Positions 14,501 to 61,731 of a stretch of DNA of 64,000 nt are shown piece by piece. The first letter of the stretch is position 1; every line of letters begins with the position of its first letter. The translations under genes were made by a program, and so were the position numbers. Origin of the DNA: Myxococcota bacterium (GTDB taxonomy: Bacteria; Myxococcota; SpSt-1050). The notes beneath the pieces were generated by a model. It was not told where the DNA came from. It ran no database searches and was given only the letters and a program-made list of their open reading frames with translations. Location of the stretch: contig JBMFOP010000002.1 in the NCBI GenBank assembly GCA_049969675.1, positions 758-64,757 of the forward strand, read 5' to 3'.

Positions 14501-14503
14501 TTT

Positions 14504-31324: not shown

Positions 31325-32230
31325 ATGAGTGAAGATAAGGAAGAAAAGACCAGAGTAATAGACCTCAAGGAAATCAAGACCGACGCCAGGAGCAAGCACG
31401 CATATTTTATAGTAATTTCTGGTAAATTGGCTGGAAAGATGTTCAAGATTGAGCAGAATGAGATGCTAATCGGTCGGTCTGATGAGGCAGATATTCAGAT
31501 TGAGGATGAGGGGGTCTCCAGAAAACACGCCAAAATTACAAGGCTTGCAGATGGGCAGGTGATGCTTATAGACCTCGGTAGCACCAATGGCACATACTTT
31601 AATGGGACAAAGATATCCGAACATATCTTAAAAGATGGAGATAAGATTCAGATAGGGTCTACAACAATTTTGAAATTCAGTTATCAGGATGATGTAGATG
31701 AACAGTTTCAAAAACAGTTCTACGACAGTGCCACAAAAGACCACCTCACAAAGATATTCAATCGTAAATTCTTTGCTGAGAGATTTATTCAGGAATTTAG
31801 TTACGCCCTCAGACATCAGAAGGTATATTCGCTTGCAATACTTGATATTGACCATTTTAAGAGAGTAAACGATACATACGGACATCAGGCTGGAGATTAT
31901 GTGTTGAGACAGGTCGCAGATGTCGTCTCGCAACTAATCAGAAACGAAGATATATTTGCCAGATATGGTGGAGAGGAATTTGTCCTTCTACTCAGAGATA
32001 CAGATGAGGAAAAGGCATTTATCTGCGCTATGAGAATCAGACGGGCGATTGAAAAACATGAATTCAAATTTCAGGATAAGATAATCCCGATTACGGTCAG
32101 TATCGGAATAAGCACACTTAAGGATGGGAATTTTAAGACGCCAGAGGAGATGTTCAGGGTGGCTGATGAATATCTATATAAGGCAAAGAATAATGGCAGA
32201 AATCGGGTGGAAAGTATTATTAATGCCTGA
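31325..32230 (+). CDS. FHA-GGDEF protein (putative diguanylate cyclase with phosphothreonine-binding input domain)
   Basis: FHA (MLIGRSDEADIQIEDEGVSRKHAKITRLADGQVMLIDLGSTNGTYFNG). GGDEF domain with intact GGEEF and a canonical I-site RxxD five residues upstream (RNEDIFARYGGEEF). Confidence 0.75.
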   Translation: MSEDKEEKTRVIDLKEIKTDARSKHAYFIVISGKLAGKMFKIEQNEMLIGRSDEADIQIEDEGVSRKHAKITRLADGQVMLIDLGSTNGTYFNGTKISEHILKDGDKIQIGSTTILKFSYQDDVDEQFQKQFYDSATKDHLTKIFNRKFFAERFIQEFSYALRHQKVYSLAILDIDHFKRVNDTYGHQAGDYVLRQVADVVSQLIRNEDIFARYGGEEFVLLLRDTDEEKAFICAMRIRRAIEKHEFKFQDKIIPITVSIGISTLKDGNFKTPEEMFRVADEYLYKAKNNGRNRVESIINA

Positions 32231-37639: not shown

Positions 37640-37779
37640 TCAAATTCCTCCTAAGATAAAACGAATATTTAATAATTTTAAATTGAAGTGTCAAGGGATT
37701 TATGCAGGACGGAAATAGTTGATTCTTATTGTTGCATTTCAGGAATCTGGGTTGTATAATAAAACTCAGGAGGTGGGAA

Positions 37780-40700
37780 ATGAAGAAATATCTGTTATTG
37801 ATATCAATCTTTTACCTTTTATATGCCTGTAGCTCACAGACTGAACCTAATAATATCTCTGATGAAAATGTGGATGTGGTCATTAACTTACGGGATGGAA
37901 CTTCTATCAAAGATATTGAACCTTCTGATGCTTCAGAGGAAGTCTGTAAAACAGGTGATAAGAGAAGTTGTTTTAGTGGCACTGACTCCCAGAGGAATAA
38001 GGGAATCTGTAGAGATGGTGAACAGATCTGCACTAATGGTAGATGGGGTGAATGTAAGAATGAAATATTGCCAGAGAGTGATGAGACCTGCGGGAATCAA
38101 AAGGACGATAATTGTAACGGCATTACAGATGAAGGTTGTGAGTGTAAAGATGGAGAAAAGAGGAGTTGTTACACCGCCAGCGAAAATACAAAATATGTAG
38201 GATTATGTAGACCTGGCACACAATATTGCAAAGATGGAAAATGGGGATTGTGTGAAGGTGAGATTACTCCAAAACCAGAGAGCTGCGAAGGTGTAGCCGA
38301 TGGATTTGCCCCTCTTGATTCAGATTGTGACGGGAAACCAGACCCATCAATCACCAACAGGTGCGGTAAATGTGGTCCTGAATTTGAAGAGATATGTGGA
38401 AACCTCGTAGACGATAATTGCAATGGAGAGACTGATGAAGGCTGTATATGCAGGGGCGGGGCGATTCAGAGCTGTTATACCGGTCCCAGAGAGACTCTCA
38501 ATAAAGGAATTTGTAAGGCCGGGATTCAGGAATGTATAAATGGGAGATGGAGTGAATGCAAGGATGAGATACTGCCAGAGAAAGACGAGGTCTGTGGTAA
38601 TCTAAAAGATGACAATTGCAATGGGATTACTGATGAGAACTGCCCCTGCACGGAGGGGGCAAAGAAGAGATGTTATACAGGTCCAGCAAATACAGAGGGT
38701 GTCGGGAGCTGCAGAGCTGGAATATCTATCTGCACAAACGGGGTCTGGGGTAAATGCGAGGGTGAGATACTTCCTGAAAAGGAGAGCTGCATAGGGGTGG
38801 AGGATGGCAAGATTCCAGAAGATACAGATTGTAATGGAGAGGTTGATAGAACAGTTGTAAATCTATGTGGATATTGTGGGCCGCTGCCACAGGAGATTTG
38901 CGGAAATGGAAAGGATGACAACTGCAATGGAGAAGTAGATGAGGGTTGTGATTGTAATGCAGATTGCCAATGCTCGGGTGGGGATTGTGAATGCCAGCCA
39001 AGATTCAATCAGCCCTGTTATGGGGGGCCATTGGAGAATATGGGCAAGGGAATATGCAAGAGCGGACTCCACGATTGTATCTTTGTAAATAATAAGTGGC
39101 AGTGGACTGAATGCAAAGGATATATACTCCCTGAGCCCGGTGAAACCTGTGACGATAAACTGGATAACGATTGCGATGGATATACAGATGAGGGGTGTGA
39201 GAGCAATAATTGTGACCCTGAGACTCAAGAGGGGTGTATTATTGAACCAGAGTGTGAGGACTGGATGATAAGGAGCTGCTACACTGGACCGATTGAGACT
39301 CGCAATAAAGGGAGCTGTCACGACGGCACCCAACATTGTATCAATGGATTCTGGGAAAAGACCTGCAATGGAGAGAAGAAACCAACGGGTGAGGAATGTG
39401 ATGGCATAGATAACAACTGCGATGGGAATATTGATGAAGACTGCGAATGTTCACCCGGTGAAGTGAGTGAATGCTATAATGGACCAATTCCAGTGATCTT
39501 TCAAAACGAGTTTGAGAAGAGTATCTGCAAAAGAGGTGAGAGAGTCTGTCTTGAATCGGGGAGGTGGGGAGAATGCACCGGCGCAACTCTTCCAGTTGAT
39601 GAGGTCTGCGGAGACGGTCTGGATAATAATTGCAATGGATATGTAGATGAATACTGCGATTGTAATCCCGGCCAGAAGAGGCTCTGCTATACCGGAAATC
39701 CAAATACAAGAGGGGTTGGGGAGTGCAGAGATGGGATTGAAGAGTGTACAATTACTGGATGGAGCGGTATCTGTGTTGGGGAGATAAAGCCAGCACAGGA
39801 GATATGTGGTGACGGATTGGACAACGACTGCAACGGACTCATTGATGACTCTGTAAATGCCTGTGGTAAATGTGATGAACCTTGCTACGAAAAGGATTAT
39901 AATGACCTCTCAGATTGCAGTGTAGAAGGGAGGAATTGCAATGGAGTAGAACCCGACCCAAATAATCCGGGCTCTATCACACTCGGTGAGGCGACATTCC
40001 AGACTCCTTTTATCTATGTGGCTGTTCAGGGCAAGAACGAGATAGCCAAACTGGATACAGTAACCGGACAGAAGATATGGCAGAAGTCCTCCTATGGAAC
40101 CGACCCATCCCGTACCGCGGTCGCAATGGACTATTCCGTCTGGGTTGGAAATAGGGGATTCAACTCTCCCGGCAACCCAGATTATTCAAATGCAGTACAC
40201 CTTGATATAGATGGGAATCTCGTATGCCGTGCAGATGTAATCGGGATCTGCAGAGGAATCGCCATTGATGCATATGGATATGTCTGGGCAGGGACATGGA
40301 ATACAAAGAAACTCTATAAGATTCATCCCTATGAAGTGGATAAGACACAGAATCCTCCAAGATGTAAGGTAGAGGCGGTCTATGATATACCTATTCCAGT
40401 CTATGGCCTCGCTGTGGACGGCAGAGGCTATCTATGGGCTTCTACAAATGCGGCTCAGACGATAAAGTTTGATACCTCCAAGGGCAATTACACCCTGGTA
40501 TCATTCCTCGCTGCATACGGGATTGCAGTCTCTCCTAAAAATGGCTGGATATGGTTTGGGAGTTATCACAAGACCGGTTGTGTTAATGCGGTTGAACCAG
40601 ACCCACCTTATACAACACACAATACATCTGTTGGGTGCGGAGGGATTATTACAGGTGTAACAGTTGATAGAGATGGATATGTCTGGGCATCAGCATATAC

Positions 40701-41286
40701 AAGTACGCACAAGGTATATAAGATAGATCCCTCAACAGGGCAGGAGATATGCAGTGCGCTCTCACCCTGTTATCCAGGCGGGAATAGCGGATGCGATGCA
40801 AGGGGTGTAGCAGAGGACTCTGCTGGTAAGATATGGGTAATCAATAGGGGCGGAGGTTATGCCAACAGATTTACAAAAGACTGCAGGCTTGAGGCAACCT
40901 TCCCGATTGACCCGGGTTATTATACCTATACCTACTCTGATATGACCGGACAGCAACTGAGGGTCGTCACCACCAAAGAGGGATATTTCATTCAAAACTT
41001 TGATTCTGGATATACAAACCCCAAATGGTATTCCATCACCTTTGACTCCATTATTCCACCTGATACATCTATTGAAATCAGGGCAAGGGCTGCAAACACC
41101 GCCGGAGAACTCCAGACCAATCCGACTCAGTGGTGTGGGCCTTTTACAATATCACCGGTCGACCTGACCACCTGTCCATTTCTAAATGACCACAGATGGT
41201 TACAAATTGAGGTCAGGCTCTCTACAAAGAAAGATGGTGTCAGACCCTCTTTGAGTAATATTAAGGTATACTGGGCAAGAGATTAA
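37780..41286 (+). CDS. Large Cys-rich lipoprotein with ~8 tandem MopE-like (putative metal-binding, CxxxDDNCNGxxDE) repeats and a C-terminal beta-propeller domain
   Basis: Start set at the Met after the GGAGGTG SD (lipobox LLYACSS). Repeats of the form CYTG...NKGIC..G...C.NG.W..C..EILPE.E.CGN.KDDNCNG.TDEGC. C-terminal 450 aa has propeller-blade motifs (GYVWAGTW, GYLWASTN, GWIWFGSY, GYVWASAY, KIWVINRG). Confidence 0.6.
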   Translation: MKKYLLLISIFYLLYACSSQTEPNNISDENVDVVINLRDGTSIKDIEPSDASEEVCKTGDKRSCFSGTDSQRNKGICRDGEQICTNGRWGECKNEILPESDETCGNQKDDNCNGITDEGCECKDGEKRSCYTASENTKYVGLCRPGTQYCKDGKWGLCEGEITPKPESCEGVADGFAPLDSDCDGKPDPSITNRCGKCGPEFEEICGNLVDDNCNGETDEGCICRGGAIQSCYTGPRETLNKGICKAGIQECINGRWSECKDEILPEKDEVCGNLKDDNCNGITDENCPCTEGAKKRCYTGPANTEGVGSCRAGISICTNGVWGKCEGEILPEKESCIGVEDGKIPEDTDCNGEVDRTVVNLCGYCGPLPQEICGNGKDDNCNGEVDEGCDCNADCQCSGGDCECQPRFNQPCYGGPLENMGKGICKSGLHDCIFVNNKWQWTECKGYILPEPGETCDDKLDNDCDGYTDEGCESNNCDPETQEGCIIEPECEDWMIRSCYTGPIETRNKGSCHDGTQHCINGFWEKTCNGEKKPTGEECDGIDNNCDGNIDEDCECSPGEVSECYNGPIPVIFQNEFEKSICKRGERVCLESGRWGECTGATLPVDEVCGDGLDNNCNGYVDEYCDCNPGQKRLCYTGNPNTRGVGECRDGIEECTITGWSGICVGEIKPAQEICGDGLDNDCNGLIDDSVNACGKCDEPCYEKDYNDLSDCSVEGRNCNGVEPDPNNPGSITLGEATFQTPFIYVAVQGKNEIAKLDTVTGQKIWQKSSYGTDPSRTAVAMDYSVWVGNRGFNSPGNPDYSNAVHLDIDGNLVCRADVIGICRGIAIDAYGYVWAGTWNTKKLYKIHPYEVDKTQNPPRCKVEAVYDIPIPVYGLAVDGRGYLWASTNAAQTIKFDTSKGNYTLVSFLAAYGIAVSPKNGWIWFGSYHKTGCVNAVEPDPPYTTHNTSVGCGGIITGVTVDRDGYVWASAYTSTHKVYKIDPSTGQEICSALSPCYPGGNSGCDARGVAEDSAGKIWVINRGGGYANRFTKDCRLEATFPIDPGYYTYTYSDMTGQQLRVVTTKEGYFIQNFDSGYTNPKWYSITFDSIIPPDTSIEIRARAANTAGELQTNPTQWCGPFTISPVDLTTCPFLNDHRWLQIEVRLSTKKDGVRPSLSNIKVYWARD
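37950..39870 (+). repeat. Tandem in-frame coding repeats (alternating ~200 and ~300 bp units), each ending in a DDNCNG-type motif
   Basis: DDNCNG/DNDCDG codon blocks recur near 38105, 38410, 38605, 38915, 39170, 39415, 39615 and 39825. Confidence 0.55.
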
Positions 41287-41600: not shown

Positions 41601-42593
41601 ATGAATTCAAGAGAAAAGCTGATTAGAATTAGAGGGGAGTTGATTGATTTAATATGTCAATTCTTCAATAGTCGTGGATTTTTGAGAGTGGAGACCCCTT
41701 CTATATATCTCTCTGAAGAGAGTAACCCTCACATAAAGAGCATAAAAGTTGGACTCGAATTTAATGGTAAAAGAATTGATGCAACACTCATCACCTCCCC
41801 TGAAATTTTTATGAAGAGACTACTTGCTGATGGATTTGGAAATATTTATCAGATGTGCAGATTTTACAGAAATGATGAATATGGAAATCTCCACAGCCCC
41901 GAATTTCTTGGACTTGAATTCTATGAACTCAATAAAAACTATTACGGGACGATGGATACCACAGAGGAGTTAATTAAATTTCTTATTAGAGAGAAGAGCC
42001 TCAGGGTATTCAATAGATATGGGAAGGAGATTGATTTCACAAAACCATTTGCAAGAATAAGTGTTATGGAATTATTGAAGGAATATGGAGTTTACTTAAA
42101 CTCTCTCGAGGATATAGAGGAACTCAAATCAGAACTCAAAGACAGAATCAATATCACAGATTCGGACAGTTATGATGATATATTCTTCAAATTCTTTCTT
42201 ACATATATAGAGCCCGAACTCGGGAAAGTAGAACCGATATTTCTTTTTGACTACCCTCCTTCAATGTCCTCAATGGCAAAGATATCAGAGAAGGGAGGTA
42301 TAAGGGTGGCTGAGAGATACGAACTATATTTCAATCAGGTTGAGATATGTAATGGATTTTCTGAATTGAACGATGCAGATGAACAGGCAGAAAGACTAAT
42401 AAAAGATTTGAACTTAAAAGGTGCAAAAAATAATTATGATAGAGTTTTTATTGAGGCATTAAAGAGATTACCCCAATGCTCCGGGAATGCAATCGGCATT
42501 GATAGATTAATTATGGTGCTTTTGAACTTGAAAAGTATAAAAGATATTATACTCTTCCCCCTTGATGAAGAGATTGAACTTTATAAAAAGTAG
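41601..42593 (+). CDS. epmA: EF-P lysyl ligase EpmA (GenX/PoxA; truncated class II LysRS paralog)
   Basis: 330 aa. Class II aaRS core with motif 2-like FRNE segment (CRFYRNDEYGNLHSPEFLGLEFYE). No anticodon-binding domain. Assignment by length and motifs only. Confidence 0.55.
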   Translation: MNSREKLIRIRGELIDLICQFFNSRGFLRVETPSIYLSEESNPHIKSIKVGLEFNGKRIDATLITSPEIFMKRLLADGFGNIYQMCRFYRNDEYGNLHSPEFLGLEFYELNKNYYGTMDTTEELIKFLIREKSLRVFNRYGKEIDFTKPFARISVMELLKEYGVYLNSLEDIEELKSELKDRINITDSDSYDDIFFKFFLTYIEPELGKVEPIFLFDYPPSMSSMAKISEKGGIRVAERYELYFNQVEICNGFSELNDADEQAERLIKDLNLKGAKNNYDRVFIEALKRLPQCSGNAIGIDRLIMVLLNLKSIKDIILFPLDEEIELYKK

Positions 42594-43245
42594 ATTTACT
42601 CTGATAACTCTCATTTTCCTCGCCTTCTCTATGTTTTCCTATGAGAGAGAATATGCTGAAGGTTCAAAGAAGGCCCTAAAATGGGAAAAGATGCCAATAA
42701 AGTATCATATAAATAAGTATTGCTATAAACCCATAGAGACAGAAAGGTGCAAAGATGCCATAGTTAAATCTTTTCAGGAGTGGGAGAGTCCGGATTGCAC
42801 AACTCTCAGATTTGAGAGAGGTGAAGATACAGAAGAGGCAAAAGGTTCATTTAATAGTCTGGATATTGAGGCAAATAAAAATATCATTGTATGGTATTAC
42901 AAAGACTGGCCATACGAACCTAATGGTCTGGCACTCACAACTGTTACTTATGATGATAAGACTGGAAAGATCTATGATGCAGATATAGAACTAAATGGTG
43001 TGTTTTATAGATTTGATGTTGTGGAGCGGACACCCTCAACATATACAGATATCCAGAATACAATTACTCACGAAATTGGACATATGATAGGTCTTGACCA
43101 TACTTTCAACCCTGATAGCGTGATGTATCCTACAGCGAGGGCCGGAGAGATAAAGAAACGTAAACTCTCACAGGACGATATTGATGGTGTCTGTGCAATC
43201 TATAAAGAAGATAGCGGTTGCAGCTGCTCTACTCTCTCTTATTGA
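42562..43245 (+). CDS. Secreted zinc metalloprotease, matrixin-like (peptidase M10)
   Basis: Signal peptide. HExxHxxGxxH plus Met-turn (HEIGHMIGLDHTFNPDSVMYP). Confidence 0.7.
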   Translation: MMKRLNFIKSRFTLITLIFLAFSMFSYEREYAEGSKKALKWEKMPIKYHINKYCYKPIETERCKDAIVKSFQEWESPDCTTLRFERGEDTEEAKGSFNSLDIEANKNIIVWYYKDWPYEPNGLALTTVTYDDKTGKIYDADIELNGVFYRFDVVERTPSTYTDIQNTITHEIGHMIGLDHTFNPDSVMYPTARAGEIKKRKLSQDDIDGVCAIYKEDSGCSCSTLSY

Positions 43246-44212
43246 GCACAACTATTCCAAGGTCATTATTTCCCTTTTTGAGTTCCACATTCCTCTGCGC
43301 ACTACTATAAGTAATATTTCCGCCAGAATCTATCCCGTAAATAATAAAACTATACACCCCCTCACTCAGGTCCTGATTCATATACTGCTGAGGGAGACAG
43401 GAGAGTGTCTTATCCAGAAAGACTGCTCCACCAGATGGCGCACTGAAGATAATCCTCACATTGGTTACACCGACATCGTTACAGGATTTACTCTCAGAAC
43501 CGAATGTCCACCCAACCTGAAATATAGCCTTTGTATAAACTCTCTTTAATACAATCACCCCTAAGTCATTGTTTCCAAAGTTGAGGGTCTTCTCAAGACT
43601 TGCAAAATACAAAGGGACACCAGCCACATCATAACCGGTGAGCTCAATAAGATATTTCTTCTTCGGGGCAAATGCTGTTATGGTTCCACCCTTATCAGAG
43701 CATTTTATAAAATCATCAAACTCAACCGTTCCATCTGCATTATAAATCCTGACACCAATCTTTGATACACCAGCCTGCACACAGTCTGTATTTGATTGAG
43801 ACTCAAATGACCAGCTAAATGTAATATCAGATAAGACATAAGCAAGTTCAATCAGGACCACCCTGCCGTTAATATCCACCTCGGATGACCCTGAATATCT
43901 GATCTCACCATTTGACCCAATCCCTTTTAAAACCACACTATAAGTATCAGGGATAAAATTTGTAACAGTTACGCCCATATATTCACAGGAGAAGTTGTTT
44001 TCATATTCCAGAGTTCCATCAGAGTTATAGACTTCAAGCCCAATGACCAGAACTCCAGCCTCAGCACAACTGATATTATTTGGAAATTTCCAGGCTATCT
44101 TCAACTCTCCCGAACCACCCTGTGGAGGAGAGACCCCTCCACAGGAATTGAAAATCAGTACCGTTGCAATGAGAAGAACTAATATATAAAACCTTCTTGA
44201 GTTCGGGTACAT
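43229..44212 (-). CDS. Lipoprotein built from three tandem ~100-aa Cys-pair domains
   Basis: Lipobox (IFNSCGG). Internal triplication, e.g. ISCAEAGVLVIGLEVYNSDGTLEYENNFSC / TDCVQAGVSKIGVRIYNADGTVEFDDFIKC / KSCNDVGVTNVRIIFSAPSGGAVFLDKTLSC. Each unit ends in a GNNDLG(I/V)VVL motif. Confidence 0.5.
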   Translation of the reverse strand: MYPNSRRFYILVLLIATVLIFNSCGGVSPPQGGSGELKIAWKFPNNISCAEAGVLVIGLEVYNSDGTLEYENNFSCEYMGVTVTNFIPDTYSVVLKGIGSNGEIRYSGSSEVDINGRVVLIELAYVLSDITFSWSFESQSNTDCVQAGVSKIGVRIYNADGTVEFDDFIKCSDKGGTITAFAPKKKYLIELTGYDVAGVPLYFASLEKTLNFGNNDLGVIVLKRVYTKAIFQVGWTFGSESKSCNDVGVTNVRIIFSAPSGGAVFLDKTLSCLPQQYMNQDLSEGVYSFIIYGIDSGGNITYSSAQRNVELKKGNNDLGIVVLNKRE

Positions 44213-44228
44213 AATCTCACCTCACCTC

Positions 44229-47200
44229 TCAATAAGTAACTGAACCCGGGATATACCAGAGTACCTTCTCACTCATAGTTCCCTTCAAATAAGTCTGCAC
44301 AGTTCCAGATACAGAATCCAGTAAAACCGCCTGAAGAGTTACAGAATTTATATAGCAATGGTCTGATTGCAACTGCAATGTCTTGTTAATCTTAATCACA
44401 TTGTTGATGTAGCATATTTTGTAATTACTATCCTGAGGGTCAATCTGACAGACCGTCACCTGAGTAGGTGAAGAATAACTGAATGATAGTTTATATGGAG
44501 GTTTCTCCGGTACAATAAATGTTGACGGCCCACTTATAACCGGTGGCGGTGGTGGTGGAATCTCATCCGAAAGAGGCTTAGCTGTTGTAAACTCTATAAC
44601 GGCACCCGGTTGATTTACAAAGTGTGAATCACATACCTTAAAATTAAACTTATACGTCTCTCCGTTACGCATTGAGAAAGTTGTATTCGGGCATAATAGA
44701 TTTATTCCAGGTGATACCGGATTGGAGCCATTACACTGACCCGCAGAAGGATAAGGGTCGGTTACAAGATTGATAGCATCTGACCACGCCATAATGGTCT
44801 CTTTGTATATGTTGGTGTTTGAATCCCATTTGTTATTTCCACTGCTCCAGATACCATCACCGTTTGTATCAAAGAAGAGTTCCACAGGTAGATTTCGCAC
44901 ATTGTCATCATCGGCATCAAAGAATGGCTCGGGCAGGTCCACAAATGGCTCGCTGGCAGAGATGGTATCTCCACCGACTGTATTTATCCAATTATTACAT
45001 CTGGGTGGGTCGTACGAGGCGATATCAATCCTCCTACACTTCTGGTCTGTCCCCGCATCAAACTTCTGTGCCTGAGGTGTTGTAAAGATATTCTCTCTCC
45101 ACATCTCTGAGCCAGTAAAATCACCATTCCCATCATTGTCGTAAAACTCCTCTTCACCAGTTGTAACTGCTATAATTGAAACGACCGTATCCCTCGGATT
45201 ATTTGTGCCATTAAAAGGTTCTCCGGCAATCGGTGTTGTATCATAAGGATATGGCTCTGAGGTTCTCAAAGAAGCAGTAGCAGTACCTAAATATGCCTCC
45301 CAATCATTTGGATATGTTGACTTTGCCGTCTCTCTGTCATAGGTCAATGCCTGTGAAGTCATCAGTCCAGCCTCAGACCTAAAGTGAACTGTTGTAGCCT
45401 TTTCAATCTTATTTGTATATCTATCACCAAGAGAGACCTTACAGGGGACTTCAACAGGTGTACCACCCAATGCAGCAACTACCTTCCTCTCGCAACTAAA
45501 GTTCATATATCGAGCTGAAGGCTTGGCACCGATTATCGCTATGGCTGGAGAGACACCCTGCACTGTTATACCGGGAAGTGTAGATGATGCAGTCACAGTG
45601 AATGTAGTGGCAACTGTACCGGATTTAATCGTAGCATATACCATACCACTATCATCCGTATATGCATAAGGAGGAATAATTACAATCCCGCCCGGTGAAT
45701 TGCTGAGTGTAAAGTCAACCCTCTGATTTTTCGGGAACCTCTGACCGATATTGTCAAATACCTTAAAAGAGATTATCGCTGTCTCATTGAATCCAGAACC
45801 CTTTGCACCCATTACATCACTTGTAATACTCTGATATATAATAGAACCCAGCGTCACAAAATTGACATAGGTAGAGTTAGAAATCACCTTATTATCTGGT
45901 GTAGTAAACTTCCCTTCAATCCTTGCAAGTGCCGCAGCAGGACCACTTATCAATTTTGCAGAGGCGTTTCCACTATTATTCAGCTGAACCGTTATATCTT
46001 TGTGCTGAATGTCGTTATAGACGCATTGTGGCGCCGGATCAATACATTCAAGAGTACCATCTGTCGTTGTAATCTTTACACTGCCGGTCTTCACCGGGGC
46101 ATTTGTATTATCAAAGACAAAGGCAGTAATCGTAGTTCTGGAATCACCATCTGCAATCAGTGATAAGTCAGATGCCACCACACTTATGAAGTAATTTGTA
46201 AGTGCATCTGCCGGTCTGATTATAATGGTAATCTTCCTCATCGGCACCTTATTCCCACAGAAATACTGGGCTGTAACCTCCGCTGCACCAGCCTCTGAAC
46301 CTCCAAACATGGTAACAGTCGCCTCACTATTATTATTGGTCAATACAACAATCTCCTGTTCACCGTTGCTGAATTTGCCCAATGTGGTAGTCAGCTGAAC
46401 CGGTACATTAGCACCGATAGGCTGATTAAACTGGTTTCTAATATCTTTTACAGTAATCACAGTTGAATCTGTTCCATTTGCCTGAATTACACTGTTTGAT
46501 GCCTCAAGCCTGAATGCACAGGGACCGGTGGCATTCGGGTCATTCATAACACCGAGCGAAGTAATGGTAGCACTCTGGTCATACTGCTTCTCATCAGCAG
46601 ACGGGTCAAATGAATAAATAATCTTTACATTGGCAGATACATTCTGGGTCTGGCCAGAATCACCAACCACATCATCAAAGACGGCAAATGTACCTTTGAT
46701 CCCGGCAGAAAAATCGGAGATAGCGGTCTGCTCAGAACAGATATATGACTGGCAGCTTCTACCTGTTGTAATCTTCATTCCAAGGTCATCATTTATAACC
46801 GGGGACTTTCCATCAATCCCTATCTTGCCAATTGTGAATAGAGTTATTATTGAAGATTTAGTTGGAGGATTGAGCCTTGCATCTTTAATCTCATAAGAGA
46901 AGTCCTGAGTACTTCCATCTGCCAGATTGAATGTAATAGGACATATGACACTCAGGTTCGGTTCATTCTGCTTACAATCTGAACCGGGGGCAACAGGGCC
47001 TGTCCAGAGGACATATGTCTTAACCCATACCAATGAATTGTCATTGGGATCAGAATGAGAATCCCAGACTCCGTTGGCCGGCGTATATTTGCCATCTGCA
47101 TTGGTATCAATATACAGCTCAGCGCAGTTATATGGTTTATTCTGCTGTCTCAATGTCTCATCAGCCGGTGTTGAACCATCACAATATCCGTTATCATTCT

Positions 47201-50200
47201 CATCTACAAAAGGTTCGCCCTGATCCACAAATGGCTCACCGGAATCATACTTACCATTCCCGTTGACATCATCAAATTCCTCCTCACCCTTAAATGCAGC
47301 AATCAGAGTTACAAGCCCATCTCTCGGGTTATATGTTTTACCACCTGAGGTATAACGTGGCTCATTGGCAAGAGGGGCAACATCAGCGGGCATTCTCACA
47401 TTGTTCGTCACCAAATTAGCGTATGCGTTTCCATCTTCGCCAATATTTGAGACATTCGTAATAATCCCGGCCTCTGTTATAAATCTTACAGCCACAGGGA
47501 GACTTACAACATTTGTATATCTATCCCTTGCACTTACTACACAATTGGTAGAAACCTTTTCACTCCCAAAACCTCCAAGGTTTTTATATTCACAACCAAA
47601 TGAGACATATTTCCTGTTTGGCTTTGCACCTATAATCACAATCGGATCTGACGATGCCGTGACTATTTGAGTCCCCATCTGCGCCCTTGCAATAATATTT
47701 ATAGTCTGCGCAAGAGTACCGGTTGTAATTATGGTCTTCACGAGACCGTCTTCAGCAGAGATTGAAGATGCTGGATTGAGTGTAATTGCACTTGTCCCGC
47801 TCTGTGCCCCTGTAAATGTAAAATCTACATTCTGACCCGCAAGCGGTCGTCCAGATGAATCAATAACCCTGAAGATTACCTCTGCTGTCTCATTAAATCC
47901 AGAATCTTTTACACCAAGTGGCGACTTTGAAATTGAGAGATATTTAATATCAGCAAGTTGAACAATATTGATTTTCACCTCAGACTTTAATTCGGGGTTG
48001 CTCTGAAATAGAGATGCACTCACTGTTGCCTCGCCTGTTGAATAACCACCCACCATCTCAATTGATGCCAGCCCTCCGGATGTCTGAGTTACACACAGGT
48101 TGGTTGTATTAATCTTGGTATTGATGCACTTATATCCATTTGGACTATTTATATCAGGGGGATTCTTGAAATATCCGAGTGTAGTTGTGAACTTTACAAG
48201 AGTTCCATCAGCAACCGGAATCCCACTGTCATCAATAAGAGTTGCATTAAATTTTGCGGAGTCAACTCCATCAGCCATAATGCTGGTCTTACCAGAATCA
48301 GGCTCCATAAGTATATTGACACCTATAAATGTGACCTTTACCTCGTCAGTAACCTTTGTAGAATATGAATCATTACAGATAAAGCTTGCCTGAATAGTCG
48401 CCGTTCCACCTCTCTCTCCATTTACCATCTGAACAGTTGCCTGCTTATTGCTTGAATTTACTACCAGATATTTTGAACCACCTGCTGTAAATTTACCGAT
48501 ATCTGTGCTGAAAGTAATTGTGGTATCCCAGGGCAATCCATCCTTATCAAGTGGCTCTGCCTTAATAAGGACCTGAGAGACTCCATCAGCGGCGACAGGG
48601 AGAGATGGGGTAAATGAGAGTTTGCTTCTGCAGGCACCTGAACTTATTGTGGAATCCATTCTACCACTTGAGGATATCACAGTCTTCTCAGAACCGGTGG
48701 AGGTCTTTGTCTCTATAGTAGCCGAGACATAAGATGGTTTCATCACCTCCTTTTCAGGGTCATCATCGGCGAGTGTAAATGCCCCGAAATAGCCGGTCCC
48801 AAATGAAAACTCATTTACCTCATAAGATATCTTTGGATTTGTCTGGTTCGCCTTTCTAACTCTTTTAATACCTATGCCGGTCATAGCTGGGACTGTCTTA
48901 CTTGTATCGCCCAGAAGCTTACCGGCACCATCCACCTTGACTTCAATAGTAGAGCCCGGTATTGGGGGGAGGAGATTAAAATCTTTAAAGGCATAATAAA
49001 ATGGCATTGAACCTTTATTTGGTATATCAAATCTCTCCGGACACATCACAGATTGAGAATTTGGATCCGGGGTCGCCCCAAGGCACTTCCCACCAGTAGC
49101 AATATTTCCAGTCCAGACTACCCATGTTGCCTTCCAGATAACCGTATTCCCATCCCATTTGCCATTTGGACCATCATACTGACCATTTAGATTTACATCT
49201 ATAAATGCCTCATCTGAATCCCATTGATTGTTGTCATTCATATCCACAAAAGGCTCACCTAAATCTACGAACGCCTCACCCTCATCGTACTGCCCATTTC
49301 CATTCTCATCATCAAACTCCTCCTCACCTGTTGTCGCCGCTATTATAGTTACTAGACCATCTCTCGGATTTCTTGCAAGCCCCGTCCCCACCCTCGGTTC
49401 ATCAGTAAATGGCTGCACATCTTTGGGCCTTGGGTCCTGAGTTCTCAGTGTTACATTGGCAATCCCCATTGAATCCGGGTCTTCACTTGTCTCAGAAGAT
49501 GGTGTGATTGCCCCCGCCTCTGTCCTGAAGAATATCTTTGTAGAAAATGGAATCTTATTTGAAAACCTATCTGCAATAGCCACCGAGCAGTGCTGTTCAA
49601 GAAGGTCATATACGAATCCCTGAACATTTATATCACCAGGGTTACAACTAAAATTGAAATACCTCGCATTGGGAACACCCGTGGTCATTACCACCGGACC
49701 ACACCTCGCCTCACCAACTTTGGATGAGCCCTTTACCCATACCGTAGTTGGGACAGTGCCGGCATAAAGTATAGTACAGGCAAGCCCTGAGTCATCAGAG
49801 ACCATACTTGTAGGATTGACATATATGCCACCCGGTGCATCTGATGGCGCGAAACTTAATGTAATCTTTGATATTGGTGCACCCTGGTCATCAACCACCT
49901 TAAAACACATATTGGTATAATCTTTATGACCAGAATTCTTGAGCCCAAGATGACTATCTCCAATATATTCACAGGATATTGTAGCATTCCTGATGAGTCT
50001 CACATCTATCGTTTTAGAGAGCTGTCTATCCAAGACTCTGGTCTGAACATTGACTGTAGCAATACCCATATCTCCATCAGACTTCAACTGGACCGATGCC
50101 TTCCCGCCTTCTGTCTTAACTGTTAGATGTTTTGTCTTTGAATTATCCGTTGTAACAAAATATCCAAGTACAGTATCAAAGATTACATCAACCTCTGGCG

Positions 50201-51101
50201 AGACAGGGTTCTCGCCATCCGAGGTGACAGATGCCTCAATCTTCAGTGAGTCAATACCGTTTGCAATCAGATATTCGTATTCACTCGTAACCTTGAGAGT
50301 TGGAGACTTTTCCGGCTCCTGCATAGATATCTTTAATGGCTCGTTTGTATTGGAGACCAGCTCATTACCCTGCGCATCCTTACACTTAAAACTGGCATTG
50401 ACCTGAATCTCGGTATTGGCATAACTGATCGCATAAATCTTGACCTTTGCCGCGCCCTGAGCATTTGTCAGTGCAGATGTACTTAGCACCGGTGTATCAG
50501 TCTTGCTTACAAATGAACCGGGAGAGGTGGTTGTAAAGGTAATCTGAGTACCTGAACTTACCGGTTTTCCTTCATAGTCTGTGGCATTCGCAGATATCTC
50601 AGCATAATCCTCTCCATTGGCAATAATTGACTTCTTATCTGCTGATAGGACTATCAAACAGGGCTCACCGGTCTCAACAGGGATCTTCGTAAAGACCACA
50701 GATGCGGTCTTTCTGTATTCTTTATTGGTTGACGGGTCCGTATAAGCGGCTGTAATTGTGACAGTACCATCTTCTTCAGATGTAAGACTCTCAGTAGCCT
50801 TACCATCGGTAGTATAGACAACCACACTATTTGTATTGTTGGAAAATTTTCCTTTACCTGTCGCATTGAGTGTGATCTCACTATCATCCGGGGCATTCTG
50901 ACCACCAATGGTAAGTCCAATTGTAATCCTGGCTGCCGTCTTCCCATCAGCAGGGACATTGGAAGAAGGGCTCACTGAGAGGGTAAGTTTCACTACTGTA
51001 GAAGGGCCTGTATCTTCTACAGATGCACCACCTCCGCCTCCACAGGAGACGATGAGCACTGTCATAAACACAATTGAAAGGATACCTGAATATTTTTTCA
51101 T
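44229..51101 (-). CDS. Giant (2290 aa) surface lipoprotein/adhesin with Ig-like (Big_1-type) domains and EF-hand-like calcium-binding loop pairs, organised as three ~690-aa super-repeats
   Basis: Lipobox (LIVSCGG). Invasin/intimin-like Ig segments (e.g. LGVKDSGFNETAEVIFRVIDSSGRPLAGQNVDFTFTG). 12-residue DxNxNGxxDxxE loops in pairs (DENGNGQYDEGE, DVNGNGKYDSGE, DNDGNGDFTGSE). Super-repeat anchors PNARYFNFSC / PNRKYVSFGC / PSARYMNFSC. Confidence 0.6.
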   Translation of the reverse strand: MKKYSGILSIVFMTVLIVSCGGGGGASVEDTGPSTVVKLTLSVSPSSNVPADGKTAARITIGLTIGGQNAPDDSEITLNATGKGKFSNNTNSVVVYTTDGKATESLTSEEDGTVTITAAYTDPSTNKEYRKTASVVFTKIPVETGEPCLIVLSADKKSIIANGEDYAEISANATDYEGKPVSSGTQITFTTTSPGSFVSKTDTPVLSTSALTNAQGAAKVKIYAISYANTEIQVNASFKCKDAQGNELVSNTNEPLKISMQEPEKSPTLKVTSEYEYLIANGIDSLKIEASVTSDGENPVSPEVDVIFDTVLGYFVTTDNSKTKHLTVKTEGGKASVQLKSDGDMGIATVNVQTRVLDRQLSKTIDVRLIRNATISCEYIGDSHLGLKNSGHKDYTNMCFKVVDDQGAPISKITLSFAPSDAPGGIYVNPTSMVSDDSGLACTILYAGTVPTTVWVKGSSKVGEARCGPVVMTTGVPNARYFNFSCNPGDINVQGFVYDLLEQHCSVAIADRFSNKIPFSTKIFFRTEAGAITPSSETSEDPDSMGIANVTLRTQDPRPKDVQPFTDEPRVGTGLARNPRDGLVTIIAATTGEEEFDDENGNGQYDEGEAFVDLGEPFVDMNDNNQWDSDEAFIDVNLNGQYDGPNGKWDGNTVIWKATWVVWTGNIATGGKCLGATPDPNSQSVMCPERFDIPNKGSMPFYYAFKDFNLLPPIPGSTIEVKVDGAGKLLGDTSKTVPAMTGIGIKRVRKANQTNPKISYEVNEFSFGTGYFGAFTLADDDPEKEVMKPSYVSATIETKTSTGSEKTVISSSGRMDSTISSGACRSKLSFTPSLPVAADGVSQVLIKAEPLDKDGLPWDTTITFSTDIGKFTAGGSKYLVVNSSNKQATVQMVNGERGGTATIQASFICNDSYSTKVTDEVKVTFIGVNILMEPDSGKTSIMADGVDSAKFNATLIDDSGIPVADGTLVKFTTTLGYFKNPPDINSPNGYKCINTKINTTNLCVTQTSGGLASIEMVGGYSTGEATVSASLFQSNPELKSEVKINIVQLADIKYLSISKSPLGVKDSGFNETAEVIFRVIDSSGRPLAGQNVDFTFTGAQSGTSAITLNPASSISAEDGLVKTIITTGTLAQTINIIARAQMGTQIVTASSDPIVIIGAKPNRKYVSFGCEYKNLGGFGSEKVSTNCVVSARDRYTNVVSLPVAVRFITEAGIITNVSNIGEDGNAYANLVTNNVRMPADVAPLANEPRYTSGGKTYNPRDGLVTLIAAFKGEEEFDDVNGNGKYDSGEPFVDQGEPFVDENDNGYCDGSTPADETLRQQNKPYNCAELYIDTNADGKYTPANGVWDSHSDPNDNSLVWVKTYVLWTGPVAPGSDCKQNEPNLSVICPITFNLADGSTQDFSYEIKDARLNPPTKSSIITLFTIGKIGIDGKSPVINDDLGMKITTGRSCQSYICSEQTAISDFSAGIKGTFAVFDDVVGDSGQTQNVSANVKIIYSFDPSADEKQYDQSATITSLGVMNDPNATGPCAFRLEASNSVIQANGTDSTVITVKDIRNQFNQPIGANVPVQLTTTLGKFSNGEQEIVVLTNNNSEATVTMFGGSEAGAAEVTAQYFCGNKVPMRKITIIIRPADALTNYFISVVASDLSLIADGDSRTTITAFVFDNTNAPVKTGSVKITTTDGTLECIDPAPQCVYNDIQHKDITVQLNNSGNASAKLISGPAAALARIEGKFTTPDNKVISNSTYVNFVTLGSIIYQSITSDVMGAKGSGFNETAIISFKVFDNIGQRFPKNQRVDFTLSNSPGGIVIIPPYAYTDDSGMVYATIKSGTVATTFTVTASSTLPGITVQGVSPAIAIIGAKPSARYMNFSCERKVVAALGGTPVEVPCKVSLGDRYTNKIEKATTVHFRSEAGLMTSQALTYDRETAKSTYPNDWEAYLGTATASLRTSEPYPYDTTPIAGEPFNGTNNPRDTVVSIIAVTTGEEEFYDNDGNGDFTGSEMWRENIFTTPQAQKFDAGTDQKCRRIDIASYDPPRCNNWINTVGGDTISASEPFVDLPEPFFDADDDNVRNLPVELFFDTNGDGIWSSGNNKWDSNTNIYKETIMAWSDAINLVTDPYPSAGQCNGSNPVSPGINLLCPNTTFSMRNGETYKFNFKVCDSHFVNQPGAVIEFTTAKPLSDEIPPPPPPVISGPSTFIVPEKPPYKLSFSYSSPTQVTVCQIDPQDSNYKICYINNVIKINKTLQLQSDHCYINSVTLQAVLLDSVSGTVQTYLKGTMSEKVLWYIPGSVTY
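44900..51000 (-). repeat. Three in-frame super-repeats of ~2.0-2.1 kb within the giant lipoprotein gene
   Basis: The GEEEF(D/Y)D-encoding block recurs near 45150, 47280 and 49310. Flanking segments are diverged at DNA level (protein identity roughly 40-60% by eye). Confidence 0.5.
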
Positions 51102-51220
51102 AAAAACCTCCTATCCAGCACGGATTTAGTAATATAGTTTATAGCAAACAATATATTTTTGCAACAAGATTTTGATCATATATATCAATTTCCGGTAAAA
51201 AAATAGGAGAAAATTTTTAC

Positions 51221-52938: not shown

Positions 52939-53667
52939 TCAAAATGTGTATTTTATTGATGGTTGGAGATTCAAGAAGAGTGTGCCTATACCAAGGAAAT
53001 AATATGCCCTTGCCTCAATGGCAATGGAGAAATGCCTCAGGGTTGTATAATATTCAGCCCCAACTCCGCCATCAAAGGCTGGAGATGTTCCGCTCATAGA
53101 GAGTTCCGAACCATCACTCTTATAATTCTTATCAGGAGAGAGGAATGCAAAACCACCACCTGCCCTGACATAGGCAAATAGCCTATCAGTTGAAAGGTAT
53201 GCAAATTTTGCAGAGAGACCAATCAATTTTATAGCGACATCGTTTGAGAGGTACTTCGGATAATTCTCGGCACATTTATCTACATCAATATTATCTCCAA
53301 ACTCCTTTTTGCACTTATTTGCATCAAAATACACCATCTTCCCTTCTTTATTGTATCCATATCCATAGGCATAACCGGTGGAATTATCAGCAGATATAAA
53401 AAATGAATAGAATCCAGCCTCTACAGAGAGTATATCCATAATATCATATCCCACAGTCATTGAATTGGTAAAGCCGGAGGAGAGTCCGGATACATCAGAC
53501 ATAATGGAAAGCCCATATGCAAGGTCTGTATTTACAAAGATACCCTTATGCACCTCAGTAATCTTCTTAACCTTATAAGCGGATGTGGCTGTAGTCTCAG
53601 TCTGCGCAAAGAGAGAGAAAGAAAATAAAGAAATAATAATCAAGAAGAGTGCATTTCTTCCAATCAT
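52939..53667 (-). CDS. Outer-membrane beta-barrel protein (GltH/NfsH-like position)
   Basis: Start set at the Met after an AGGAG SD (MIGRNALFLIIISLFSFSLFAQTE signal peptide). The ORF track's upstream extension is unlikely. Alternating hydrophobic beta-strand pattern and aromatic C-terminus (SIKYTF). Confidence 0.5.
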   Translation of the reverse strand: MIGRNALFLIIISLFSFSLFAQTETTATSAYKVKKITEVHKGIFVNTDLAYGLSIMSDVSGLSSGFTNSMTVGYDIMDILSVEAGFYSFFISADNSTGYAYGYGYNKEGKMVYFDANKCKKEFGDNIDVDKCAENYPKYLSNDVAIKLIGLSAKFAYLSTDRLFAYVRAGGGFAFLSPDKNYKSDGSELSMSGTSPAFDGGVGAEYYTTLRHFSIAIEARAYYFLGIGTLFLNLQPSIKYTF

Positions 53668-54059
53668 AAAAACTCCTATTAGAAAATGAATTATAATTGA
53701 AAATGGTTTTTTCATTAAAACAGGAAAGGCGGAAGAATTATATAATTCTCGGCTCTTTGAATCACTACCATCATAAAGGACTGATTCAGAAACCAGTCTC
53801 GCCTTTCTCAAACAATTTTTTAGGAAGTTATTTATTCGTTTGTAGATACTGATGTCTCCATATCTTCTTTCTCTGACACGACTCTTAACTACAACTGTTC
53901 TATCCATTTCTCTATTACTGTCAATACGGATCCCAATGTGTTCTCCAGACTCCTTATTGTCACTACCTCTGTTTGCAAATTTTCCAGGACTATTTTTGTT
54001 ATGCCTTCTCATAAATCTTTTCTACATCTAAGAGAATTTTTTATAGTTAACTCCCGTCT

Positions 54060-55928
54060 TTAATCTGTTCTCTTGAGTATAAATGGATATGTCACAATCA
54101 CAATACCTCCACCCTTTGGCTCGGGGAATTTCCATCCTTTAATCTTACTAACTATACAATTCTCAACATTCTGGTTATTAATTGTGGTCTCTTTCACCTT
54201 TGCTGACTGAACTGAACCTGTTGGAGATATTACAAAGTTGACTGATACCTTACCCCAAAGTCCAGGATTCTTTGCAAGCTCAAGCTCATAGCAGTATCTT
54301 ATCTCATTTGCATGTGCCCTGATAACTCTTCTGATCAATTCCTTATCAAGTGAACCGAGGACCATTGGAGTTCCACCAGATATACCTATATCATGTTCCT
54401 TCTTTCCACCAATTGAACCCACACCATAACCATAACCACCCTGTCCCGCACCTCTCCCTCTGGTACCAACAGAGCCGATGCCGATAGAATCAAGGCTGGA
54501 ACCTCCGCCACCAGGACCAACACCTCTAAGCCCTAATCCACCCGAGCCCCTTGCATCACCTATCTGAGAACCAAATAGTCCTCCAATAGCATTTTGTAAA
54601 TCACCTCCAAGACCTTTTCCACCAAATAATGTTGAGCCACCGGCAAACATACCACCACTCTTGCCAAACATTTTCAACACTCCAACTTTCTGGACAATCT
54701 CCCTATCATCGGGTTTAATTGCCTTTACAGCAGACCTCTTAAAAACCTCTGGTGCATCTTTCTTGCCCATCTTACCTTCCTTACCTGCTGCTTTTGCACC
54801 CGACTCGCCCTGCTTTGGCATCTCCTTTAATTTCTTCATCTCTTTATCATCGTCCATTTTCTTCGCTGGTGTCATAATGAAGTTGACAAATTTATTAGGA
54901 TTTTTAACCACCTGTTCGGTCTCAGCCTTTATATCGTATGGGAATAGATACATACTTACCAGTGATGTAACCGTAAAGAAGACAGCCACAATAAGGGCAT
55001 TTAAATAATTGTAATCAACATTAGTTCCCAATCCGAGAGGGAGTTTTCTTGGTGGAGGTGTAAATCTAAACTGAAAAATTGCATTGTTAATATACATTCT
55101 GGTAATCGAATTAGGGGGCAGTGTATAGATATAAGAATCGGGTATTTGAGGATCAGGAAGTGCCCTTTTTTCATCTATCAAATCCTTGAATGACTTTGAA
55201 CTCTCTCCAATATAGACCTCTCCCTCCACATTCCTTGGAAAGGTGAGTTGATATTCTCTATTTACTGTTCTAATAACTGGATATTCAGGGATGGTTATCT
55301 CATCCGGTATAATATAGAAATCACACTTACTCGTTGAACCTATAGTCACCTTCTGAGGATATGTAAAATATTTTACATCAACCATCTCCATATACCACAG
55401 GAACTTTACCTCAATAGCCCTATTTCCATAAGGGTCCTTCTCCTCCTCTTCATGCTCATCCAAATCCCTCTTTGATGCACCCTGTGGCTTTATATTCTCT
55501 TTAGGCTTACTCTTTTGAACCTCTCTCTTCTCTAATTTTGGAGATACTAACTTCTCCTCCTTTACAACCTCCTCCCTCTCCTCTTCAACTACCGGGGCTA
55601 CTGCAACTGGAGATTTTATAACACCTTTATCAATTGATACAATCAGCTTTGTCTTCCCGAGGAGAATCTCATCACCGTCATTTAATACAGCCCTTTCTAC
55701 GGTCTCTCCATTGACTATGGTTCCAGCGGATGAGCCCATATCCTTAATGAGATATCCATCTGATGTGGCTTCAATATGTGCATGAACCCTTGAGACTGTA
55801 GGGTCATCCAGCTTCAGATTAACAGAGGATAGTCTTCCAATTTTAATGAGAGCATCTGAATATGTCTCCTCTCCAATAAACTCATCACCATAATAAATCT
55901 TAAAAGAAATCTTTTTATCCATGGTCAT
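54060..55928 (-). CDS. FHA + TM + AgmX/PglI C-terminal (TonB-C-like) domain protein, GltG/PglI/NfsG-like
   Basis: FHA (IGRLSSVNLKLDDPTVSRVHAHIEATSDGYLIKDMGSSAGTIVNGETV). Acidic/Pro-rich linker, TM (LNALIVAVFFTVTSLVSMYLF), Gly-rich region. C-terminal domain with the conserved Cys pair (ANEIRYCYELELAKNPGLWGKVSVNFVISPTGSV ... NCIVSKIKGWKFPEP). Confidence 0.65.
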   Translation of the reverse strand: MTMDKKISFKIYYGDEFIGEETYSDALIKIGRLSSVNLKLDDPTVSRVHAHIEATSDGYLIKDMGSSAGTIVNGETVERAVLNDGDEILLGKTKLIVSIDKGVIKSPVAVAPVVEEEREEVVKEEKLVSPKLEKREVQKSKPKENIKPQGASKRDLDEHEEEEKDPYGNRAIEVKFLWYMEMVDVKYFTYPQKVTIGSTSKCDFYIIPDEITIPEYPVIRTVNREYQLTFPRNVEGEVYIGESSKSFKDLIDEKRALPDPQIPDSYIYTLPPNSITRMYINNAIFQFRFTPPPRKLPLGLGTNVDYNYLNALIVAVFFTVTSLVSMYLFPYDIKAETEQVVKNPNKFVNFIMTPAKKMDDDKEMKKLKEMPKQGESGAKAAGKEGKMGKKDAPEVFKRSAVKAIKPDDREIVQKVGVLKMFGKSGGMFAGGSTLFGGKGLGGDLQNAIGGLFGSQIGDARGSGGLGLRGVGPGGGGSSLDSIGIGSVGTRGRGAGQGGYGYGVGSIGGKKEHDIGISGGTPMVLGSLDKELIRRVIRAHANEIRYCYELELAKNPGLWGKVSVNFVISPTGSVQSAKVKETTINNQNVENCIVSKIKGWKFPEPKGGGIVIVTYPFILKRTD

Positions 55929-55938
55929 CCCTTTCGTC

Positions 55939-56238
55939 TTAGAGGTCTGAGACCGAACCTAAGATCTTATTCTTAAAATCCTCTCTATATTTGATCAGAT
56001 TCTGATGTTTAACCTTTGCAGCGCTCTGAATATATTCACCATCGGGCTTTGTAAGGTCTCCAGTAATCAGGTCATCTTCAAAGTCATAGACCGTCTTCTT
56101 CTTATATAGAGTTTGCCCATCTGAGACGGTTGCATTCTCCTCTTCGTCTGCGAAACTTAATTGAGAATTCAGAAGAAATATTATGGCAAAGACAATTGAG
56201 AGGAAAAAAAGTCTCTTCATCATACTACCTCCAGACAA
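55939..56238 (-). CDS. Small periplasmic protein (GltF/NfsF-like position)
   Basis: Signal peptide (MKRLFFLSIVFAIIFLLNSQLSFA). ~75-aa mature acidic protein with no recognisable motif. Sits between the TPR genes and the FHA/TonB-C gene, as gltF does. Confidence 0.4.
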   Translation of the reverse strand: MSGGSMMKRLFFLSIVFAIIFLLNSQLSFADEEENATVSDGQTLYKKKTVYDFEDDLITGDLTKPDGEYIQSAAKVKHQNLIKYREDFKNKILGSVSDL

Positions 56239-56283
56239 TTACTATTATAACACCATACCCTTATTAATTCAAATAGTATTATT

Positions 56284-61678: not shown

Positions 61679-61731
61679 CAGACCTCCATAATCGGCAACC
61701 CCTCAGAGAGAGGATGCAAAACCATTTGATA

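Follow-up and report, generated by a model that had tools for sequence, protein, structure and literature searches.

A widespread loop-bearing module, present three times in a 2290-residue lipoprotein of a Myxococcota bacterium, and its predicted metal binding

The window analysed here, a stretch of 64,000 nucleotides (nt) from a Myxococcota bacterium (assembly GCA_049969675.1, contig JBMFOP010000002.1, positions 758 to 64,757), carries on its reverse strand a gene for a protein of 2290 amino acids (aa; Table 1). An earlier note, made from the DNA letters alone, had described it as a lipoprotein of three super-repeats combining Big_1-like Ig domains with paired EF-hand-like Ca2+ loops. The questions raised by this locus are what such a protein is built of and whether its loops would bind calcium. 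Each super-repeat was found to close with a module of ~350 aa which is covered by no Pfam family or solved structure and is undescribed yet widespread, and whose loops are strongly predicted to hold a metal.

The loop-bearing module

The module consists of an Ig-like domain, a coil of ~60 residues with three loops and a beta-sandwich, in this order, and has no Pfam or NCBIfam match. The loops, three per module, are 12 residues long, follow the consensus DxNxNGx(Y/W)DxxE and are joined by (E)PF(V/I), with an extra FVDLGE half-unit after loop 1; units 2 and 3 contain the same three loops as unit 1, each with the addition of one Cys-pair insertion. Their pattern reproduces the EF-loop ligand positions 1, 3, 5, 9 and 12 together with Gly at position 6, and counterparts are found in super-repeats 2 and 3. 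Seven DxDxDG-type cores were counted against 0.23 expected, the maximum in 2000 shuffles being 4.

Conservation was assessed in a hidden Markov model (HMM) alignment of ~340 non-redundant module copies from ~240 proteins, out of 292 fetched relatives, and in a smaller alignment of 18 modules, the three modules of each of six orthologues. The ligand positions of the loops are 70-99% conserved in the large sample (individual residues in Table 1) and invariant among the 18 paralogous and orthologous modules. The acidic positions, whose loss in homologues the earlier note had named as telling against its proposal, are thus kept, and from their conservation of 80-99% we strongly infer that the loops bind a metal, probably Ca2+. 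Also invariant in 18 of 18 modules are DRxxN of the first domain, NPRD, G-EEEF-D-x-x-G-x-G, E-x-F-x-D, EP-x-x-D-x-x-D, E...D, two Trp and the Cys pair C673/C687. For the pair C486/C505, both members are missing together in distant copies of the third super-repeat, which is the behaviour expected of a disulfide. The many invariant Cys and this joint loss point to an oxidising, extracytoplasmic location.

Module 1 was modelled with AlphaFold2 from the 18-module alignment, giving an all-beta structure with a predicted local distance difference test score (pLDDT) of 88.7 and a predicted TM-score (pTM) of 0.84. In module numbering, the Ig-like domain occupies residues 1-126 and the beta-sandwich region residues 186-347, while residues 127-185 between them have almost no regular secondary structure, yet a pLDDT of 82-89. 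A second AlphaFold model, of aa 572-815 and from a separate 19-sequence alignment, agrees with the first (pLDDT 88.5), the loop stretch being coil with pLDDT of 82-90 over the two models, and DSSP assigned no helix in aa 594-652 of either confident model. As modelled, the loops are helix-free tandem EF-type loops and not EF-hands in the family sense. The paired EF-hand-like loops of the earlier note consequently stand as regards the 12-residue EF-type ligand pattern, but not as regards pairs of EF-hands, since there are three loops per module and no helices.

The loop stretch is the variable part of the module in homologues, taking insertions in the third super-repeat, extra loop units in P0080 and P0195 and inserted DUF7151 domains in P0040, and such tolerance fits an exposed excursion. 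A 15-residue unit, (E)PFxDxNxNGxWDxxE, was also seen in long tandem arrays in P0146 (4813 aa, dozens of units), P0019 (2345 aa), P0195 and P0080, without a match in Pfam at E<=10.

Structure searches gave little resembling the module. A PDB sequence search with the whole protein gave no match, and Foldseek against PDB gave for the module weak multi-Ig matches (TM<=0.26), with intimin D00-D0-D1 among the best, and for the loop-plus-sandwich subdomain nothing below E=5.9e-3 (TM<=0.31). The only PDB matches of the module profile were 2OJR (2ojr_A) and 3VDZ (3vdz_A), at E=0.32 and over module positions 149-176. Both are ubiquitin fusions that begin with YIDTNNDGWIEGDELYIDTNNDGWIEGDEL and carry YIDTNNDGWIEGDEL twice, aligned on loops 2-3, and this doubled segment we take to be an engineered, EF-loop-derived double lanthanide-binding tag. 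Lanthanide-binding tags hold metal without flanking helices. At E=0.32 the match is a resemblance of motif and no evidence of homology; as a precedent, it shows that a loop of this type is able to hold a metal by itself.

A search of 1.84 billion representative proteins with the module profile returned 3747 with E<=1e-3, of which 764 reach E<=1e-30. Among the fetched relatives, the module occurs once in 178 proteins, twice in 23 and three or more times in 16. Many of the top matches are proteins of ~800 aa with the module at about 460-820, and the stand-alone relatives of this size that were read start with a lipobox and have the domain order of one super-repeat. Each super-repeat can be aligned over its whole length with stand-alone lipoproteins of ~800 aa, as super-repeat 1 with the 850-aa P0020 (44% over 779 aa) and super-repeat 2 with the 823-aa P0168 (36% over 683 aa). 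Named sources are metagenome-assembled genomes (MAGs) of Myxococcota, 'Deltaproteobacteria', Bradymonadales and Nitrospirota, and the cultured Archangium violaceum. All source names seen for module proteins are 'hypothetical' or the generic 'Ig-like' or 'Big-1 domain-containing', and the search for a characterised homologue in a model organism gave hypothetical or 'Ig-like domain-containing' names only, Archangium violaceum included. A scan of genome contigs with a narrow peptide pattern found only 6 loci and says little on distribution.

Architecture and stability of the 2290-aa protein

The N-terminus is MKKYSGILSIVFMTVLIVSC followed by GGGGG and contains a lipobox of the form MKKYSGILSIVFMTVLIVS-C20, in agreement with the pattern [LVI][ASTVI][GAS]-C after a signal peptide; Cys20 is invariant in 10 orthologues. 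The protein is accordingly classed from its sequence as a bacterial lipoprotein, a substrate of Lgt/LspA with predicted acylation, as had been claimed before. One Myxococcota MAG has a near-identical protein of 2289 aa under the name 'hypothetical protein'. Orthologues over the full length, of 80-84% and 40-41% identity (2286-2337 aa), were found in independent NCBI, JGI, Logan and GEM assemblies. Ser, Thr, Gly and Asn together account for 33.8% of the residues against 22.2% in the other open reading frames (ORFs) of the window; the enrichment is thus real, but the word 'extremely' used for it earlier was overstated. We take enrichment of this degree to be ordinary for Ig-repeat surface proteins.

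Unmasked self-comparison by BLASTP returned the self match alone, and masked windows were therefore used. These gave two sets of off-diagonal matches, at offsets of 663-706 aa, with identities of 24-43% and E-values down to 4e-47. Together with a three-way alignment, from which the approximate boundaries of the super-repeats were taken, and with the Pfam matches, they confirm at the protein level the periodicity and the three super-repeats with Big_1-type Ig domains. Before the module, each super-repeat has three Big_1/Invasin_D3-like domains, or four in super-repeat 1. Big_1 (PF02369) was matched with 140.4 bits (cut-off 34.9) in 8 stretches and Invasin_D3 (PF09134) with 104.8 bits (cut-off 33) in 6 stretches; only four Pfam families were reached at E<=1 on the whole protein, none of substance beyond these two. 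At the same threshold no inverse-autotransporter beta-barrel and no lectin-like tip were matched. Neither VWA nor EGF matches in Pfam nor an NCBIfam gliding-protein match was obtained for the ORF. EEEF(D/Y)D is encoded at 49314-49325, 47274-47285 and 45144-45155, one block per super-repeat and where they had been reported (~49.31, 47.28 and 45.15 kb), and the other motifs listed by the earlier note (VxFxVxDxxGxP, PN(A/R)(R/K)Y..F(S/G)C, DxNGNG loops and GEPFVD) are all present and aligned across the repeats.

At the DNA level, on the other hand, the super-repeats of the earlier note were not recovered. Tandem Repeats Finder found no repeats in the gene, and in BLASTN of the gene against itself the matches were limited to one of 141 nt (74%) and one of 32 nt (88%). 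The sole repeat family in three copies, of 82 nt and 62-71% identity, is the one that contains the EEEF(D/Y)D blocks. Exact direct repeats do not exceed 15 nt, and between codon-aligned modules the nucleotide identity is 47-49%. Exactly three modules are present in 11 of 11 orthologues, down to 40% identity and at a length of ~2290 aa (2286-2337). The low DNA identity and the fixed number of modules and length in orthologues indicate that the triplication is old and stable. On the same evidence, a contingency gene with length-variable repeats was rejected. The earlier worry that the gene is a site of recombinational length change or of assembly collapse is hereby corrected: there is no DNA identity to be used for either, the independent assemblies agree, and the gene is not a likely site of them.

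Genomic setting and weighing of explanations

The three-module gene is followed after 16 nt by a co-transcribed partner gene, which encodes a second, 327-aa lipoprotein. The partner has no Pfam family, and its counterparts in orthologue contigs show weak SdrD_B and CarboxypepD_reg-like Pfam similarity. A partner homologue directly follows the three-module gene in every orthologue examined, that is in the contigs L001 (80%), L003 (41%) and L008, and also some single-module genes (L011, L014), several others having no partner. A correspondence of one partner repeat per module was considered and rejected: P0170, with a single module, has a partner of two repeats, and several single-module genes are partnerless. 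In L014, two module genes in tandem are accompanied by a 331-aa partner, an arrangement that suggests a plausible precursor of the fused three-module gene and a route to fusion. The 3' end of the partner gene in the window overlaps by 17 nt a convergent gene for a matrixin-type (M10) metalloprotease (42562-43245, plus strand), which resembles the myxosortase-dependent MXAN_2677/2678 type (158 bits, under the cut-off of 250); an M10 metalloprotease gene also lies beside the partner gene in L001.

On the other side, rplM-rpsI adjoin the three-module gene in the window and in L001. Beyond them in the window, and parted from the lipoprotein gene by these two genes only, lies an Agl-Glt adventurous-gliding gene set (52939-63555, minus strand). 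A functional link to the adjoining glt genes is not supported, as the adjacency is missing in both L001 and L003. Elsewhere in the window a protein of 1185 aa is encoded (37729-41286, plus strand) in which five putative metal-binding motifs of the MopE type (PF11617, 99 bits) are accompanied by weak matches to beta-propellers (Reg_prop, SGL); the PF11617 motif also occurs N-terminally in some module-bearing relatives (P0185, P0236, P0145). FHA-domain proteins are unusually dense in the window: apart from GltG, the plus strand encodes two side by side, at 2290-3594 and at 3606-5639, the second of which also has TPR, and an FHA-GGDEF diguanylate cyclase further on (31325-32230).

Table 1. Positions of the lipoprotein gene, its parts and adjoining genes in the window; percentages are conservation in ~340 module copies
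Feature	Position	Strand	Description
Lipoprotein gene	44229..51101	-	ATG start, 2290 aa, stop codon included; from ORF list and translation
Shine-Dalgarno AGGAGG	51107..51112	-	5 nt 5' of ATG, read directly in the sequence
Signal peptide and lipobox (aa 1-20, ...LIVS-C20)	51042..51101	-	From sequence, C20 conservation and lipoboxes in stand-alone homologues
Super-repeat 1 (aa 21-815)	48657..51041	-	Four Big_1/Invasin_D3-like Ig domains and module 1
Super-repeat 2 (aa 816-1512)	46566..48656	-	From masked self-BLASTP and three-way alignment
Super-repeat 3 (aa 1513-2290)	44232..46565	-	Most divergent; longer C-terminal sandwich
Module 1 (aa 468-815)	48657..49700	-	Ig-like domain (Cys486-Cys505), loop stretch, beta-sandwich (invariant Cys673-Cys687)
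Module 2 (aa 1150-1512)	46566..47654	-	
Module 3 (aa 1850-2290)	44232..45554	-	
Loop stretch 1 (aa 594-652)	49146..49322	-	EEF-DENGNGQYDEGE-AFVDLGEPFV-DMNDNNQWDSDE-AFI-DVNLNGQYDGPN-GKWD; coil in both models
Loop stretch 2 (aa 1273-1347)	47061..47285	-	Loops at 1278, 1300, 1332; Cys1307-Cys1326 insertion inside loop 2
Loop stretch 3 (aa 1983-2093)	44823..45155	-	Loops at 1988, 2062, 2078; 50-aa Cys2022-Cys2035 insertion after loop 1
Unit 1, loop 1	aa 598-609		DENGNGQYDEGE; D598 99%, N600 93%, N602 88%, G603 93%, aromatic 605 89%, D606 84%, E609 91%
Unit 1, between loops 1 and 2			D613 94%, E616 91%
Unit 1, loop 2	aa 620-631		DMNDNNQWDSDE; D620 98%, E631 92%
Unit 1, loop 3	aa 635-646		DVNLNGQYDGPN; D635 97%
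Unit 1, after loop 3			W649 81%, D650 88%
Partner gene, 327-aa lipoprotein (lipobox FNSC)	43229..44212	-	16 nt downstream; three ~95-aa repeats, two Cys each
CglE	52939-54012	-	96 bits, cut-off 70
GltG	54060-55928	-	FHA and AgmX/PglI C-terminal domain; 523 bits, below cut-off of 650
GltE-like TPR	56284-58431	-	184 bits, below 225
TPR protein, 1124 aa	58304-61678	-	
GltC	61732-63555	-	575 bits, cut-off 450

The reading favoured here, with a probability of about 0.55 as a whole, is that of a lipid-anchored, disulfide-braced and Ca2+-dependent envelope stalk which derives from a triplicated ~800-aa lipoprotein and works with its partner in adhesion or surface organisation. The three-unit gene would go back to an ~800-aa lipoprotein, found on its own in many relatives, whose gene was triplicated in frame or fused, and the product would be lipid-anchored in the cell envelope, most likely in the outer membrane. 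Each unit would be rod-shaped, with three or four Big_1/Invasin_D3 Ig-like domains in a row and the ~350-aa module as its cap. Each loop would most likely chelate a single Ca2+, which makes nine in the whole protein. The Phe and Tyr/Trp of the loops would pack into a small core, and the bound metal would give fold and stiffness to a knob, without structure otherwise, where the two domains of the module meet. The whole protein would then be a long disulfide-braced, Ca2+-dependent stalk that displays three knobs and probably acts with the small downstream repeat lipoprotein; by analogy with Big_1 adhesins and with CglD, discussed below, adhesion or organisation of the envelope surface would be its likeliest role.

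A number of observations weigh against this stalk. Position 12 of loop 3 is Asn and not Glu, the EF-hand pattern PS00018 of PROSITE has 0 matches on the protein, and the module models contain no metal. Pfam EF-hand, dockerin, TSP_3 and Calx-beta were not matched at E<=1 on the whole protein, nor at E<=10 on the loop stretches taken alone or on the 435-aa loop array of P0146. A ligand-binding tip domain (lectin, VWA) was not found, and surface exposure is not predictable from the sequence. The context beyond the partner varies, from rplM-rpsI (window, L001) to tol-pal at many single-module genes and housekeeping genes in Archangium, and for this reason provides no functional anchor.

The tol-pal neighbourhood is the ground for another explanation, in which the protein would be a structural tether or spacer of the periplasm and outer membrane that cooperates with Tol-Pal, and not a surface adhesin. 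In 5 of the 7 single-module genes examined (L010, L011, L012, L013, L014), tolQ-tolR-tolA(-tolB-pal) are divergent neighbours, and a lipoprotein anchor and disulfides suit the periplasm equally well. However, these five genes all lie upstream of murI-grpE-dnaK, so that the association may be the inherited synteny of one lineage; tol-pal is absent next to the three-module gene in the window, L001 and L003, as it is at the Archangium violaceum gene and in L015; and a 2290-aa Ig-like rod is estimated to be probably longer than the periplasm is wide. Such a tether is considered unlikely. Ca2+-dependent assembly is common among surface layers, and the large size, the Ig-like repeats, the many putative Ca2+ sites and the conserved two-gene cassette would also suit a component of a lattice or matrix at the surface that depends on Ca2+, an S-layer-like coat made with the partner lipoprotein. 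This appears more improbable still, given that no S-layer family of Pfam or NCBIfam was matched and that many members of the module family have no partner.

The glycosylated adhesin with true paired EF-hands and length variation driven by DNA repeats, as implied by the earlier note, has in its favour the EF-loop ligand scheme, the enrichment in Ser, Thr, Gly and Asn and the presence of a PMT_2 gene in the window, but is contradicted on three of four points and is regarded as very improbable. Flanking helices are lacking and PROSITE and Pfam EF-hand searches were negative; the DNA identity of 47-49%, the longest exact repeat of 15 nt and the fixed length and module number in 11 orthologues leave no room for such variation; and the PMT_2 enzymes called 'nearby' come down to one match in the window (14504-16186), 28 kb off across secA, glyA and ~20 other genes. 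Around two orthologue genes no PMT_2 gene was called either, within 10 kb to both sides in L001 and, in L003, within 5.3 kb upstream and 10 kb downstream, and the proposed link is thereby not sustained. The PMT_2 gene itself is part of a region on the minus strand (12842-17124) with a neighbour of similar size without Pfam match (12842-14500) and a 313-aa upstream ORF, beside which a 1064-aa GH2-like protein is encoded (17803-20997, plus strand). Hardly credible is a protease trap of the alpha-2-macroglobulin kind: the protein is a large lipoprotein of beta-sandwich domains, Foldseek gave weak matches to E. coli alpha-2-macroglobulin and to complement C3/C5 (E ~4e-3) and the relative P0019 has a weak bMG3 match, but the TM-scores are <=0.2, and neither an A2M/MG Pfam domain nor a CxEQ thioester motif was found in the translation.

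A broader extension of the favoured Ca2+-dependent stalk is more tentative and itself rather doubtful. The module may found an undescribed family in which tandem EF-type loops (EPF-DxNxNGx(Y/W)DxxE) are set between two Ig-like sandwiches and which, with the partner and often at a Tol-Pal locus, would serve as a general Ca2+-dependent, or even lanthanide-dependent, element of the envelope or surface in Myxococcota, Nitrospirota and their allies.

Comparison with known systems

As in intimin and invasin, tandem Big_1/Invasin_D3 Ig-like domains make up the bulk of each super-repeat, but in place of the inverse-autotransporter beta-barrel, LysM anchor and C-type-lectin tip of those proteins there is a lipobox anchor. 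The loop module is not known from either. With the EF-hand loop and the lanthanide tags the loops share the length of 12 residues, the ligands at 1, 3, 5, 9 and 12, Gly at 6 and an aromatic at 7/8, whereas a helix-loop-helix is lacking in the module models and PS00018 and the Pfam EF-hand are unmatched. The calcium 'wire' of thrombospondin type-3 repeats and COMP likewise consists of helix-free tandem Asp/Asn-rich loops before a beta-sandwich, with occasional disulfides in the loop region; here, however, the unit is EPF-DxNxNGx(Y/W)DxxE, with a period of ~15, an aromatic at position 8, three loops per module and no TSP_3 match.

Very large surface proteins that combine Ig repeats with calcium sites are well known, and the 2290-aa protein as a whole is therefore not surprising. 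Within the Myxococcota, CglD of M. xanthus is a surface lipoprotein with 12 DxDxDG motifs that confers Ca2+-dependent gliding (bioRxiv 10.1101/2023.10.19.562135). Both are Myxococcota lipoproteins in which a region largely without structure holds many loops of the DxDxDG type, the Ca2+ dependence being experimental for CglD. In contrast, the VWA/MIDAS domain, EGF-like Cys-rich repeats and COMP-type repeats of CglD were not detected in the 2290-aa protein, which does not belong to the VWA/EGF type of CglD, and no sequence relationship between the two was found.

The true homologues are the stand-alone ~800-aa 'Ig-like domain-containing' lipoproteins of Myxococcota, such as Archangium violaceum JRI60_10580, whose domain order, with the module, is that of one super-repeat, but which have one module instead of three and are all annotated as hypothetical, none being characterised. 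What is new is thus the module, a very conserved and confidently modelled domain of predicted metal loops, without cover from Pfam or from Foldseek against PDB and present in 3747 representative proteins. Were it defined as a family, many myxobacterial envelope proteins that now lack annotation would gain a name and a testable hypothesis of Ca2+ binding.

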